UHGV virus genome: UHGV-0039940 | DNA: 17,129 nucleotides | Source of the DNA: a virus | Direction: 5' to 3' (one strand) | Shown here: positions 7,053 to 15,040 of the stretch, one piece after another | How the letters are laid out: each line of letters starts with the position of its first letter | Position numbering within the stretch: position 1 is the stretch's first letter | Notes under the pieces: generated by a model | The model's database searches: none | Told to the model about the DNA's origin: nothing | What the model saw: only the letters and a program-made list of their open reading frames with translations | Made by a program: the position numbers and the translations under genes

Positions 7053-7950
7053 TCTTGCAACCGTAACACATTTAAGGCCTTCACAACGGCCTGTGGAGCG
7101 TCGTGTGGCAGAAGTTGAAGATGGTTATACCCGTCTTGCAAATGCCCTGTATGAAGAGCTTATCGGCGCAGATTTAACGAAAAATCAGAGCAAGGTTGCC
7201 CACGCCATATGCCGTAAAACATACGGCTACGGTAAAAAGATGGATCGCATCTCTGATAGTCAGTTAGCTCAAATTACCAGGCTGCCAAGACAGAAGGTAA
7301 ACAAGGCCAAGAATGAGCTTATCGCGATGAAGGTTATCCTTCGCGAAGGCCAGCAAATCGGGCCTAACAAGAACATCGAGGAATGGCAAATCGAAGGGTG
7401 TCACTACTCTGGTGATAATGTCACTGCATTGGTGACAAAAAGTGTCACCAAAACGGTGACAGCGCTGTCACCAAAACAGGGACACACAAAAGAAACTATT
7501 ACAAAAGAAAAAAGAAAAGATTATTCGTCCGAGAATTCTGGCGAATCCTCTGACCAGCCAGAAAACGATCTTTCTGTGGTTAAACCGGATGCTGCAATTC
7601 AGAGCGGCAGCAAGTGGGGAACAGCAGAAGACCTGACCGCCGCAGAGTGGATGTTTGACATGGTGAAGACCATCGCACCATCAGCCAGAAAACCGAATTT
7701 TGCAGGGTGGGCTAACGATATCCGCCTGATGCGTGAACGTGACGGACGTAACCACCGCGATATGTGTGTGCTTTTCCGCTGGGCCTGCCAGGACAACTTC
7801 TGGTCCGGTAACGTGCTGAGTCCGGCCAAACTCCGCGACAAGTGGACCCAGCTCGAAATCAACCGTAACAAGCAACAGGCAGGCGTGACAGCCAGCAAAC
7901 CAAAACTCGACCTGACAAACACTGACTGGATTTACGGGGTGGATTTATGA
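7045..7950 (+). CDS. O: Replication initiator O (chimeric: heterologous N-terminal origin-binding domain, lambda-type C-terminal domain)
   Basis: 301-aa ORF; the C-terminal half (...[49 protein letters not shown]...DWIYGVDL) matches lambda O, the N-terminal half does not. Confidence 0.9.
7391..7525 (+). other. Replication origin inside O: GTGAC/GTCAC-type iterons followed by an AT-rich tract
   Basis: Repeated ggtgac/gtcacc units (ggtgacaaaaagtgtcacc, ggtgacagcgctgtcacc) then acacaaaagaaactattacaaaagaaaaaagaaaagattatt. Confidence 0.6.
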
Positions 7951-8540
7951 AAAACATCGCCGCACAGATGGTTAACTTTGACCGTGAGCAGATGCGTCGG
8001 ATCGCCAACAACATGCCGGAACAGTACGACGAAAAGCCGCAGGTACAACAGGTAGCGCAGATCATCAACGGTGTGTTCAGCCAGTTACTGGCAACTTTCC
8101 CGGCGAGTCTGGCTAACCGGGGCCAGAACGAACTGAATGAAATCCGCCGCCAGTGGGTTCTGGCTTTCCGGGAAAACGGGATCACCTCGATGGAACAGGT
8201 TAACGCAGGAATGCGCGTAGCCCGTCGGCAGAATCGACCATTTCTTCCATCACCCGGGCAGTTTGTTGCATGGTGCCGGGAAGAAGCATCCGTTATCGCC
8301 GGACTGCCAAACGTCAGCGAGCTGGTTGATATGGTTTACGAGTATTGCCGGAAGCGTGGCCTGTATCCGGATGCAGAGTCTTATCCGTGGAAATCAAACG
8401 CGCACTACTGGCTGGTTACCAACCTGTACCAGAACATGCGGGCCAATGCGCTGACTGACGCGGAATTACGGCGCAAGGCTGCCGATGAACTGACCTGTAA
8501 GCACGAATTAACCGTGGTGAGACGATACCTGAACCAGTAA
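7947..8540 (+). CDS. P: Replication protein P, truncated by a frameshift near 8493-8500 (C-terminal residues continue in another frame to 8644)
   Basis: [42 protein letters not shown]... matches lambda P up to ...RRKAADEL, then diverges to TCKHELTVVRRYLNQ-stop; the lambda-like ARINRGE.IPEPVKQLPVMGGRPLNRAQALAKIAEIKAKFGLKGASV is encoded in a different frame ending at 8642-8644. Confidence 0.8.
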   Translation: MKNIAAQMVNFDREQMRRIANNMPEQYDEKPQVQQVAQIINGVFSQLLATFPASLANRGQNELNEIRRQWVLAFRENGITSMEQVNAGMRVARRQNRPFLPSPGQFVAWCREEASVIAGLPNVSELVDMVYEYCRKRGLYPDAESYPWKSNAHYWLVTNLYQNMRANALTDAELRRKAADELTCKHELTVVRRYLNQ

Positions 8541-8640
8541 AACAACTTCCTGTCATGGGCGGCAGACCTCTAAATCGAGCACAGGCTCTGGCGAAGATCG
8601 CAGAAATTAAAGCTAAGTTCGGACTGAAAGGAGCAAGTGT

Positions 8641-8931
8641 ATGACGGGCAAAGAGGCAATTATTCATTACCTCGGGGCGCATAAGAACTTCTGTGCACAG
8701 GACGTTTCCGCGGTAACAGGCGCAACCGTAACCAGTATAAATCAGGCTGCGGCTAAAATGGCGCGGGCAGGAATCCTTGTCATTGATGGTAAGGTCTGGC
8801 GAACGGTGTATTACCGGTTTGCTACCAGGGAAGAACGGGAAGGAAAGGTGAGCACGAACCTGATTTTTAAGGAGTGTCGCCAGAGTGCAGTGATGAAACG
8901 GGTATTGGCGGTATATGGAGTTAAAAGATGA
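8641..8931 (+). CDS. ren: Ren (protects against Rex exclusion)
   Basis: 96-aa ORF MTGKEAIIHYLGAHKNFCAQDVSAVTGATVTSINQAAAKMARAGILVIDGKVWRTVYYRFATREEREGK... matches lambda Ren as I recall it. Confidence 0.85.
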   Translation: MTGKEAIIHYLGAHKNFCAQDVSAVTGATVTSINQAAAKMARAGILVIDGKVWRTVYYRFATREEREGKVSTNLIFKECRQSAVMKRVLAVYGVKR

Positions 8932-9882: not shown

Positions 9883-10406
9883 CTATCAAATCAAATACGC
9901 CAGCACACGACAAGGACTGCTGGCAAACGCCGCTTTGGCTTTTTGATGTACTGGATATTGAGTTTGGATTCTGGCTGGATTCGGCAGCGAGCGACAAAAA
10001 TGCTCTGTGTGCTCACTGGCTAACTGAGGCCGACGACGCGCTCAATTCTGAGTGGGTAAGCCACGGTGCAATCTGGAATAACCCACCGTACAGCAATATC
10101 AGGCCGTGGGTGGAAAAAGCCGCTGAGCAGTGCATACAACAACGACAGACGGTAGTGATGCTTGTGCCAGAGGATATGTCTGTCGGATGGTTCAGTAAGG
10201 CTCTGGAGAGTGTTGACGAAGTTCGCATCATCACTGATGGACGGATTAATTTTATCGAACCATCGACAGGGCTGGAGAAGAAGGGAAACAGCAAAGGTTC
10301 CATGCTGCTGATTTGGCGACCGTTCATCAGTCCTCGACGGATGTTTACTACCGTATCCAAAGCGGCATTGATGGCGATCGGGCAGGGCGTCAGGAGGGCG
10401 GCATGA
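9879..10406 (+). CDS. Orphan phage DNA N6-adenine methyltransferase
   Basis: ATG overlaps the ninB stop (ATGA); the protein contains the motif IWNNPPYSN (NPPY catalytic motif of N6-adenine methyltransferases). Confidence 0.8.
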
Positions 10407-10585: not shown

Positions 10586-10645
10586 TTGACGTGATGATTT
10601 ATTCGGGGCTATATTCCTCACGCGCCAGCAAAATCTGGCGTCGGG

Positions 10646-10845
10646 ATTAGGAACCCCGGATAGAAACCGCGACAGAGACACGCCGCGAGCGTGTTTTTTA
10701 TTGTCGTATGCACACGCACATCTGAATTATGGTGGGGCGTATAGGGGAGCTGAAAAGCTCGCCGGTTGGTTTCCCGGTAGTTCCTAACCCTGTACGTCTC
10801 GCCACCCGATGATTAGGAACCTGACGGTGGTGATAGTTTAGAAAC
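10646..10845 (+). promoter_or_regulatory. Repeat-containing leader upstream of the ORF6N-like gene (ttaggaacc motifs in direct and inverted orientation)
   Basis: gattaggaacc at 10646-10656 and 10811-10821, inverted gttcctaacc at 10780-10789; tagaaacc at 10661-10668 and 10838-10845; candidate promoter TTGTCG (10701-10706) / AATTAT (10725-10730). Confidence 0.4.
10678..10700 (+). terminator. Rho-independent terminator after ninE
   Basis: ACACGC-cgcga-GCGTGT followed by TTTTTTATT. Confidence 0.6.
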
Positions 10846-10862: not shown

Positions 10863-11546
10863 ATGACAACTCAAGTTTCTGTTGAAACACTCTCCACGAT
10901 TACTTACAAGCAGATCCCCGTTATCACTACCGAACTTTTGGCGCACCTTTACGGCACAGAAGCTATTCGTATTCGCCAGAATCACCACGAAAACAAAGGT
11001 CGTTTCATTGAGGAAAAACACTTCTTCAAACTTGAAGGTGAAACTTTACGTGAGTTCAAGCACAGAGTAGCTTTTAACTACTCTGTGAAAATTGCCCGTA
11101 ACGTTCGCTCCCTCATCCTATGGACAGAACGCGGCGCAGCCCGTCATGCAAAAATGCTCGAAACCGATCGGGCGTGGGAAGTGTTCGAAAAACTGGAAGA
11201 CTGCTATTTCAGCCAGTGCGAGAAAAATACTGGCAAACAAGAGAAGAAGCCCAACGGGCTTTCCGCAAAAGAAACAGACAGCCTTGTATGGCTGTGGGAT
11301 TATGCCAACCGCTCACAGGCATTGTTCCGTGAGTTGTATCCCGCATTAAAACTGATTCAGTCTGGCTATTCCGGCATATGCCACGACTACGGCTATGAGT
11401 TCTCGTATATCATCGGGAGGGCGAGGGGCGTTTTAATTAATCACACGCGGGATATAGATATTTATGAGCCTGACGGGCCGACGAACCTTCTGGCATGGGA
11501 AAGGCTTAAGAACAAAGAGTTGCCGCCTTCACTGCATCGCTACTGA
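10863..11546 (+). CDS. ORF6N-domain-like protein (antirepressor-associated family), terminator-bracketed moron
   Basis: 227-aa ORF with GAGGG RBS; N-terminal part (...[50 protein letters not shown]...) resembles the ORF6N domain as I recall it; flanked by terminators at 10678-10700 and 11563-11590. Confidence 0.6.
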
Positions 11547-11590: not shown

Positions 11591-11620
11591 GCTGAATTTT
11601 CAATATGAGAGGACATGACA

Positions 11621-12343
11621 ATGAATGAGCTGATAAATAGCAACGTCATCAAAATGACAAGCATTGAAATCGCTGAGTTGGTGGGAAGCCAACACGGTAA
11701 TGTCAGAATATCAATAGAACGTCTGGCAAAGCGTGGGGTGATTCAACTTCCTCCAATGCAAAAAGTTGAAAATAAACAAACAATTAGCCCTAACAAATTC
11801 ACAAGCGTGTATATATTCGAAGGCGAACAAGGTAAGCGAGACAGCATTATTGTCGTCGCTCAGTTGTCGCCGGAATTCACCGCTCGTCTTGTTGACCGTT
11901 GGCGAGAACTCGAAGGGGCAACCGCGAAAATACCACAAACCTTTTCTGAGGCATTGCGCCTTGCGGCCGACCTTGAAGACCAGAAGGCTGAACTGGAGAA
12001 ACAGCTTGCTCTCGCAGCACCTAAAGTTGAGTTTGCCGATCGCGTTGGCGAGGCCAGCGGAATTTTGATTGGAAACTATGCAAAGGTTGTTGGAATTGGT
12101 CCAAACAAACTGTTTGCGTGGATGCGCGATCACAAAATCCTTATTACTTCAGGTGCCCGGCGCAATGTGCCAATGCAGGAATATATGGAGCGCGGCTATT
12201 TCACAGTGAAAGAAACAGCGGTCAACACAAATCACGGAATACAGATATCGTTCACCACAAAAATCACCGGGCGTGGTCAACAGTGGCTGACCAGAAAGCT
12301 GCTCGATAACGGAATGCTGAAAGTAACAGGGGAGGCTGCTTAA
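11621..12343 (+). CDS. roi: Rha/KilA-C family regulatory protein (Roi-like, antirepressor family)
   Basis: [48 protein letters not shown]... (ATG at 11621, 7 nt after GAGAGGA; alternative ATG at 11615); N-terminal Rha-like and C-terminal KilA-C-like segments as I recall HK022 Roi-type proteins. Confidence 0.65.
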
Positions 12344-13510: not shown

Positions 13511-13599
13511 CCATAATTAGAGGGTAAGCTGCCGTTAGTGACTCTTAAGTTGCAACGGTGGCTTTTTTTATTTGGGTCAGTCGTATAAAGGTCATTACG

Positions 13600-13648
13600 G
13601 AAGGCTGTTAACCTTCTTATCGTGGTTCGATTCCCGCTACCCGCTCCA
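13600..13648 (+). other. tRNA-like fragment (3' two-thirds of a decayed tRNA: anticodon arm with GUU, T-loop, CCA)
   Basis: Anticodon stem-loop gaagg-CTGTTAA-ccttc (13600-13616), T-loop G-TTCGATT-C (13625-13633), CCA at 13646-13648; T-stem and acceptor stem do not close and no 5' half pairs. Confidence 0.3.
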
Positions 13649-13816
13649 GATTTATTATCAGGCTCGCTTCGGCGGGCTTTTTTTGTATCTGCGCCACGCC
13701 CGGCGCATATCAACCACAGAGCCTTTCGGGGGTGAGCTTACGGAGTGGTCAGTGTGACTTTCTCTGTGGGCAGATCGCTCCCGGGCGTTGGCTCACCCAC
13801 CCAAAGGAACGTCACG

Positions 13817-14248
13817 ATGTTTGGTATTTTTGGTAAAAAAGCCCGCCGAGCGGCAGTGGAAATTAAAAAGTTTGAGAAACGTGATCTGGCACAGGCGGTT
13901 ATTAATGCTGCCTATCTGGTGGCCTATGCAGATGGTGAATGTGAGGCTTCAGAGAAAGCGAAGATCGAGCAGGTCTTGCGTAACCAGCCTGCGTTGTCCG
14001 CGTTTACGTCAGAAATTAATGCGATTAGCGCAACCATTATCGGTCAGCTGGATACGAACTTTAAAATTGGTCGTCGAGCGGCGTTACGTGAGATCGAGGA
14101 TGTGAAACACGATACGCGTGAAGCGGAAGACGTGCTGGATGTGGCGGTGGCCATTGCCGAAGCAGACGGCGAAATAGAGCCGGAAGAGCGCAAGGTGCTG
14201 GAAGAGATTGCCGGTGTCCTGGGCCTTCGTCTGGAGAATCATCTGTGA
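13817..14248 (+). CDS. TerB-like (tellurite-resistance TerB family-like) protein, 143 aa
   Basis: ATG at 13817 after AAGGAA; MFGIFGKKARRAAVEIKKFEKRDLAQAVINAAYLVAYADGECEASEKAKIEQVL...VAVAIAEADGEIEPEERKVLEEIAGVLGL shows two helix-ADGE-helix repeats typical of TerB-like domains as I recall them. Confidence 0.55.
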   Translation: MFGIFGKKARRAAVEIKKFEKRDLAQAVINAAYLVAYADGECEASEKAKIEQVLRNQPALSAFTSEINAISATIIGQLDTNFKIGRRAALREIEDVKHDTREAEDVLDVAVAIAEADGEIEPEERKVLEEIAGVLGLRLENHL

Positions 14249-14256
14249 CGGTAAAA

Positions 14257-14409
14257 ATGCGTCTGGCTGTGGTTGCGCTCCTGCTGTTTCTGGTGGTGAT
14301 GGTGGACTTCAGCAGCCGGATAATGTCAGTGCTGGCTGACGGTGTGCTGGTGGCGGGTGTGGTGGTTGTTGCTTTCCCGTTGCTGAAAAAGAAAGCATCA
14401 GGCGATTAG
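14257..14409 (+). CDS. Small membrane protein (50 aa, two hydrophobic segments) coupled to the TerB-like gene
   Basis: MRLAVVALLLFLVVMVDFSSRIMSVLADGVLVAGVVVVAFPLLKKKASGD; an in-frame GTG at 14245 overlapping the TerB-like stop is an alternative start with GGAG 8 nt upstream. Confidence 0.35.
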   Translation: MRLAVVALLLFLVVMVDFSSRIMSVLADGVLVAGVVVVAFPLLKKKASGD

Positions 14410-14648
14410 CAGGGTATCAGTTACCCGTTGAAATTTTTAAATACCTCACAATTCAGGCGGTTGACTGTTGTCTGGTTTGCGGGGAGTTTGTTAAAAGAAA
14501 CTGGCATGGTGAATCCCCCTGTGCGGAGGGGCAATCAGCAACTGGTGTTTTGTCACCGACCCTTATCCTTTCTGTGCGGGTTCAGGTGCTGATACTGAAC
14601 TCACCGGGAGGCACCCGGCACCATGCAATGGCACATAGCGCCACTCTC

Positions 14649-14684
14649 CAGCCCCTCTCCGGAGGGGCTGTTTATATTGATTTT
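14649..14684 (+). terminator. Strong rho-independent terminator
   Basis: CAGCCCCTC-tccg-GAGGGGCTG followed by TTTATATTGATTTT. Confidence 0.6.
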
Positions 14685-14704: not shown

Positions 14705-15040
14705 TTATGGACTTTGTTGTTTTAGTCCATAAGGACATATTTGCAGAGTGCAACGGTTATTAAAGCATTCATTCAATACGTTATCTGTATTTGTAGGGCA
14801 TTCCTGGCTGTTTTTGATTAAATTCCAGAATTTTTTATTGAATGGTACTACGTTGTAAATGGTTACAGGTAGCACTTTGTTATTGAGCATGATACCTGTG
14901 TGAGTCAGTGTAAATATACTTTCAGGAGGTAAGAAAGCATCCGATTGATACCAGATTATTAATTTTATTTTACTCCATATGACTGAAAAAGATATTCCGC
15001 ATGATGGCTGGATAACTGTATCAATCACAATCCACTTCAT
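14705..15040 (-). CDS. Hypothetical Cys-rich protein (111 aa) in an AT-rich island, convergent with the late operon
   Basis: ORF with AAGGAAA about 5 nt upstream of the ATG at 15040; strongly AT-rich; no family recognised. Confidence 0.3.

Follow-up and report, generated by a model that had tools for sequence, protein, structure and literature searches.

Does the replication gene P of a lambdoid prophage of Escherichia coli, read in one frame up to an early stop and continued in another frame, reflect a genuine mutation, an error in the sequence or a means of making one protein from two frames? The question is raised by UHGV-0039940, a stretch of 17,129 nt (the window, i.e. the whole stretch of DNA that was analysed) which represents the early and regulatory half of such a prophage. 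The initial annotation, made from the letters alone, described P as frameshifted, with its C-terminal domain separated from the rest, and offered the choice between a defective (cryptic) replication module and a sequencing error.

The order of genes in the window is exo (with a scaffold gap inside), bet, gam, kil, cIII, a gene of the Nmad5 family and N; then three small genes, cI, cro, cII and a DUF2740 gene; then O, P and ren, followed by genes of the nin region (DUF7301, Lar, NinB, Dam and NinE); then two antirepressor-type genes, NinG and Q; and finally TerB, DUF3927, a PmrD-like gene (minus strand) and the start of a NanS-p esterase gene. The closest complete genome is that of E. coli SCU-104 (95% of the window at 98.2% identity). 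Much of the window is common to Stx1a-converting phages; a search of phage records found none identical to it. Set against the Stx1a-converting and related prophages, the window has TerB, DUF3927, the PmrD-like gene and NanS-p downstream of Q, and within its bounds no stx genes there.

The lesion in gene P

The truncated P ORF occupies positions 7947–8540 of the plus strand and encodes 197 aa versus 233 aa in the native protein: residues 1–184 are native, the following 13 are out of frame (KHELTVVRRYLNQ) and the ORF is closed by TAA at 8538–8540. The ORF translations bear out the initial description of a frameshifted P that runs from 7947 to 8540 and agrees with lambda P through ...RRKAADEL; in this frame the protein ends with ...RRKAADELTCKHELTVVRRYLNQ (...TCKHELTVVRRYLNQ), directly followed by the stop codon. 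The lambda-like C-terminal residues, said to be encoded in another frame ending at 8644, are indeed present in the −1 frame, which reads ARINRGETIPEPVKQLPVMGGRPLNRAQALAKIAEIKAKFGLKGASV between two stop codons and whose terminal TGA (8642–8644) overlaps the ATG of ren (8641). The out-of-frame remnant (8501–8644, plus strand) comprises codons 187–233 (ARINRGET...KFGLKGASV) together with the original TGA, and its DNA is identical to that of intact alleles.

A net difference of 4 bp had been noticed near 8493–8500. Comparison with intact alleles sharpens it to a clean deletion: the alignments place the junction at 8499/8500 (plus strand), where the four bases TGAC, present in all intact alleles (ACCTGTA[TGAC]AGCACGA in the closest of them), are missing. 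The absence of TGAC is the sole difference in 125 nt between the window and the closest alleles, those of E. coli O26:H11 11368, Stx1a phages (e.g. PV728), SCU-104 and an NCTC assembly. Since this alignment gives a clean loss at 8499/8500, P of the window can be read as native through residue 184 (T183 and C184). Compared with lambda itself, the region of the lesion appears as 14 nt in place of 18 nt, for the most part an allelic difference. Across the site, the 233-aa P encoded by the intact alleles reads ...ADELTCMTARINRGET....

The family of the gene is clear from several comparisons. The truncated product matches Pfam family PF06992 (Phage_lambda_P) with 186.9 bits (cut-off 26) over protein residues 38–183, covering profile positions 1–147 of 162, and its residues 1–182 match lambda P (PDB 6BBM, 8V9S, 8V9T; PF06992) almost throughout. 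For the intact parental allele, the match to lambda P extends over residues 1–233 (E = 3.3e-150; chains of 8V9T, 8V9S and 6BBM). Hundreds of intact P genes of 702 nt share 99–100% identity with the flanks of the lesion, so the split frame is not a chance pattern; the intact P of Stx1a and other lambdoid prophages (WP_000788927.1, O26:H11 11368) shows the same 99–100% DNA identity around the lesion. In contrast to the window, the intact-P prophages (O26:H11 11368 and the NCTC assembly) have TGAC and a 233-aa P. The gene also has the position expected of the lambda P family, between O (with its internal putative origin) and ren, with overlapping stop and start codons. On its sequence, it is a frameshifted derivative of a member of the PF06992 lambda P family and not an intact member.

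Two ways in which such a deletion might have come about were considered and dropped. TGAC lies outside any tandem repeat or homopolymer, which does not fit repeat-mediated slippage or phase variation, and the intact sequence TGTATGACAGC, as read, holds no palindromic site that would give a 4-nt overhang, as expected for an engineered deletion at a restriction site.

The neighbours of P are in good order. The replication initiator gene O (7045–7950, plus strand) is intact, encoding 301 aa (PF04492 Phage_rep_O, 127.9 bits), with the same length as in SCU-104, in the NCTC assembly and in a carrier contig described below (L004). Its stop codon overlaps the start of P (ATGA, 7947–7950). As ori-lambda lies inside O, we note that the putative origin of the window also lies inside O (7399–7523): four iteron-like repeats TGTCAC...GTGACA (7399–7484; families D1, D4 and D8 of the repeat search) are followed by an A-rich stretch (7488–7523), and by comparison with lambda this putative origin appears intact. 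Downstream, ren (8641–8931, plus strand) is an intact gene of 96 aa with its own Shine-Dalgarno sequence, AAGGAG, 7 nt upstream of the ATG; ‘protein ren’ is the annotation at the homologous positions in two relatives (L002 and L003). The window is thus like lambda in its O-P-ren order, in the ATGA overlap of O and P and in the origin-like iterons inside O. It is unlike lambda in that P is native only to residue 184, the C-terminal lasso (193–233) is out of frame and the ren overlap is lost for the translated frame. The initial annotation had the overlap with ren preserved; this is correct for the original stop codon (8642–8644 against the ATG at 8641), but not for the frame that is translated, as ribosomes translating P now stop 100 nt upstream of ren and no longer reach it. 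Loss of this overlap should at most weaken translational coupling of ren.

Apart from P, the ORF lengths across the 17 kb are those found in relatives, and no further frame-breaking indel is present. The early region besides P is intact, with exo-bet-gam, N, cI, cro, cII, O with its origin, ren, the nin genes and Q.

Several RNA elements were seen elsewhere in the window. The lambda cIII thermoregulator RNA element (Rfam RF01804, 88.5 bits) is located at 2140–2198 on the minus strand, at the start of cIII. Just 5′ of the two antirepressor-type genes (10863–11546 and 11615–12343), Rfam models for c4-a1b1 targets (10609–10662), isrK (10622–10699) and C4 antisense RNA (10725–10809) find matches, so that 10609–10809 together with the ant genes resembles a C4 RNA immunity cassette of the P1/P7 style that controls ant, placed within the nin region; this C4/antirepressor segment has many indels and strong divergence with respect to SCU-104. 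In Stx phages, tRNA genes sit downstream of Q. A stretch between Q and TerB (13574–13643), which matches the Rfam tRNA model weakly (32.6 bits; gathering score 29) and is not called by ARAGORN, may be what is left, in degenerate form, of such tRNA genes. The TerB and DUF3927 genes occupy 13745–14409. They are followed by a full-length match to the STnc100 sRNA (14475–14679, 137.6 bits) and by a PmrD-family ORF of 111 aa on the minus strand (14705–15040); the last two fill the slot between Q and nanS-p which is the location of stx in related phages.

Carriers, descent and rarity of the deletion

The exact 197-aa product occurs on at least nine contigs, and the allele is also carried by a contig of 95 kb. 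Six of the nine were fetched and belong to six different sample/assembly accessions (GCA_958337495.1 at NCBI, ERZ28658501 at ENA, and SRR22135744, SRR33441940, SRR31188208 and ERR5263496 in Logan), although these data sets could all go back to a single clone or reference strain that has been sampled widely, which would limit the sense in which they are independent; even so, the deletion would be no error. Five of the six (L005–L009) are 100% identical to the window over their whole length. The sixth, the 17-kb NCBI contig L004, has 2 differences from the window in 15,007 nt. The carriers of the deletion therefore form two sublineages, 2 SNPs apart.

A relative with an intact gene, the NCTC E. 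coli assembly L018 (GCA_900449405.1, UGCV01000008.1), surfaced through a look-up of the 206-aa protein encoded at 3975–4595, a protein found on thousands of contigs, other prophages included. It holds the same prophage, of the same lineage, with 3 substitutions in 11.6 kb. Its P carries the lineage-specific A20 and G59 as in the window, but has TGAC and is intact. At positions 9949 and 14443, L004 agrees with the NCTC assembly and the window differs from both, which places the deletion before the two private SNPs of the window. From these comparisons we infer the order: intact P, then the TGAC deletion, then two further SNPs in the sublineage of the window. The deletion is recent, since the remnant at 8501–8644 is still base-for-base identical to intact alleles.

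The NCTC assembly has features of its own. An IS1 insertion (about 11604–12301 of L018) adjoins its Nmad5 gene, and ∼25 scattered gaps of 1 bp with respect to the window interrupt NinG, Q, TerB, bet and int; these gaps look like long-read consensus errors and not like real lesions.

The allele is very rare. A search with a 71-nt query, for matches without the 4-nt gap, found the deletion in none of the 3,191 P copies of complete E. coli genomes (spread over 2,645 of 5,426 genomes, with up to five copies per genome) and in none of the 149 matched phage records. The exact 34-nt junction had no match in IMG/VR, in JGI metagenomes or among GTDB species representatives. Each of the 152 phage records that have this P gene covers at least 80% of the 698-nt query and, among the matches listed, 40 of 40 phage P genes span 702 nt.

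A second allele without the tail, P0003, was also found. It encodes a P of 208 aa, native to residue 193 and diverging thereafter, which also lacks the C-terminal lasso; it is present on 53 contigs (up to 330 kb) and is absent from the phage collection. Thus no phage record carries either of the two tail-less forms (197 aa or P0003), and the full-length P seen across phage records fits the tail being needed in viable phages.

In a further cluster, P0001, there are many ‘partial’ P proteins of 185–196 aa, encoded on contigs whose ends fall within P near residues 185–196. These contig-end proteins could be mistaken for truncations. A likely explanation is that the 5′-terminal 550 nt of P are common to several co-resident prophages, whose sequences part at ELTCM/ELVHM/ELSCM, where a short-read assembly breaks.

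The lost tail of P and its consequences

P is essential for lytic growth, as established by lambda genetics. Its product is the loader of the DnaB helicase, and four domains have been described: I (residues 1–29, the N-terminal lasso), II (∼30–119), III (∼120–192) and IV (193–233), the last being the C-terminal lasso or ‘grappling hook’ (PMC12661323). In the 2.66 Å B6P5 complex, the lasso helix 211–227 lies next to the DH and LH helices of neighbouring DnaB subunits, where it buries ∼1400 Å2 and shears the DH-LH interface as the DnaB ring opens into a spiral (PMC12661323). The fragment 103–233 of lambda P suffices for robust DnaB binding (PMC6391071). Deletion of codons 9–86 makes P non-functional, a C-terminal fusion to a 66-aa SPA tag still complements, and lambda imm434 Pam3 plates only with plasmid-borne P (PMC3640518).

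The truncated P lacks residues 185–233 in native form, i.e. the end of domain III and the whole of domain IV. It keeps domains I and II and most of domain III, including the N-terminal part reported to bind O. With the C-terminal lasso lost, it is expected to be unable to open and load DnaB at the prophage origin, and an induced prophage would be left without DNA replication unless a co-resident lambdoid prophage supplied an intact P. Such complementation in trans is realistic, with about half of complete E. coli genomes holding a P of this type. Some binding to DnaB by the truncated P may persist, as the contacts of P with DnaB also involve domain III and the N-terminal lasso. Our search of the literature on C-terminally truncated lambda P found no functional experiment. 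By analogy with the solved lambda P-DnaB structures, we infer a loss of P function, which would make the prophage replication-defective with an otherwise intact early region.

The preferred reading, to which we give a probability of about 0.8, is thus that a real, recent and vertically inherited deletion of TGAC has frameshifted the DnaB-loader gene P and presumably disables replication of this E. coli lambdoid prophage. The lesion would be a first step of prophage decay and not part of an old cryptic remnant: a gene of lytic growth carries an inactivating lesion, the P frameshift, and within the 17 kb there is no set of several lesions or IS elements of the kind that would indicate long decay. 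Of the initial proposal of a defective or cryptic replication module, the defective P is retained, as predicted from the structures; ‘cryptic’ overstates the case, as the other genes in the 17 kb are intact and the late region lies outside the window.

An explanation that accepts the deletion as real and differs in its cause is that loss of the tail was selected, either by relieving toxicity of P and replicative killing of the host, or by leaving a fragment that binds O, is inert towards DnaB and blocks superinfecting phages sharing O and P. We consider it unlikely, although there are precedents. P is toxic to E. coli through sequestration of DnaB, and the survivors of induction of a trapped lambda prophage have O or P mutated by small deletions, frameshifts or IS insertions (PMC4926192, PMC3640518). 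Among the RK− mutants of Hayes and colleagues, deletions of 7 bp and 44 bp were located in O, and an IS2 element had inserted at lambda position 39690, inside P (39582–40280) (PMC4926192). Our lesion resembles these in being a small frameshifting deletion in the O-P module of a resident prophage; unlike the window lesion, the RK− mutants were laboratory-selected in prophages unable to excise, whereas the window lesion occurs in a natural lineage, with intact neighbours and no sign of selection. The existence of the second tail-less allele, P0003, and the persistence of the deletion lineage for long enough to gain 2 SNPs also speak for selection. Against it, the deletion is confined to one narrow lineage of a very rare allele, and the remnant, showing neither decay nor compensating changes, fits a recent neutral or mildly deleterious hit. 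The benefit to the host is moreover unclear while the other prophage genes are intact: a P-null lambda prophage still able to excise and lyse does not save its host.

A bolder version, which we regard as distinctly improbable, has the tail-less P retained as a dominant-negative decoy against lambdoid phages sharing O and P, binding O and perhaps, weakly, DnaB, with P0003 as a repeated case of selection for tail loss and with a 29-aa lasso peptide as a possible further product. If this were true, the 197-aa P would be made on induction or superinfection and would bind DnaB without opening the ring.

Error, recoding and the meaning of the allele

The reading of the frameshift as a real deletion has next to be set against a sequencing or assembly error, in which case the true sequence would have TGAC and a single P frame of 233 codons. 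The window is a draft scaffold with a visible fault: in exo (182–721), ten Ns (447–456) separate two perfect 265-nt copies (182–446 and 457–721). In addition, none of the 5,426 complete E. coli genomes has the allele, nor do the collections searched for phages, GTDB, IMG/VR and JGI. The fault in exo had been cited initially as a sign that the record is not error-free. It consists of two overlapping contig ends that were left unmerged, with a scaffold gap between them (exo is a single intact copy of 226 aa in SCU-104, L004 and the NCTC assembly), a scaffolding problem with no bearing on the accuracy of bases. Within conserved coding sequence, the P deletion is the only frame-breaking indel between the window and SCU-104, all remaining indels being in intergenic or strongly divergent segments, and there are no error-like indels elsewhere in the window; the site of the deletion is neither a homopolymer nor a repeat. 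The identical deletion, and the same 197-aa product, recur in six assemblies under six accessions from three sources (NCBI, ENA and Logan) and in two sublineages 2 SNPs apart. Contigs of k-mer graph assemblers contain only k-mers seen in reads; on this principle the junction must exist in the reads. The alternative of an error, left open by the initial annotation, is therefore rejected as highly improbable. An origin of the letters in the 17-kb Sanger record of phage H-19B, which would have favoured an old misreading of gels, is likewise rejected, given the lack of stx downstream of Q, the lack of an identical phage record and the N gap of the scaffold.

The weakest alternative, hardly credible, is that P, in full length or in two pieces, is restored by recoding, be it a programmed −1 frameshift, slippage in transcription or reinitiation at ATG 8555: the shift needed is indeed −1, within an overlap of 37 nt between the −1-frame stop (8498–8500) and the 0-frame stop (8538–8540), and the ATG at 8555 (Met205 of P), 15 nt past the new stop, would open a 29-aa peptide with the lasso helix, but 8501–8537 has no in-phase heptamer X XXY YYZ (the only one in the gene is at 8096, ∼400 nt upstream), the P gene has no homopolymers of six or more, the sequence upstream of ATG 8555 (CAGTAAAACAACTTCCTGTC) has no Shine-Dalgarno motif, and every copy translated, the near-identical NCTC prophage included, is a single uninterrupted ORF. 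Because the relatives all have one uninterrupted ORF, the layout in two frames is a fresh lesion and not a conserved arrangement.

The deletion in P is thus a recent and ordinary case of pseudogenisation in a phage gene that is well known, with no new mechanism. For annotation, the appropriate label for P is that of a frameshifted pseudogene, with several assemblies in support, and it would be wrong to ‘correct’ the frame as an error. The prophage would have been caught at the first step of inactivation, with one lesion in its helicase loader and an early region otherwise intact, and its near-identical intact relative (3 SNPs in 11.6 kb) serves as a comparison. Since the lesion removes the wedge that was identified structurally as opening the DnaB ring, the allele would provide a natural test of the need for the C-terminal lasso of lambda P in vivo.
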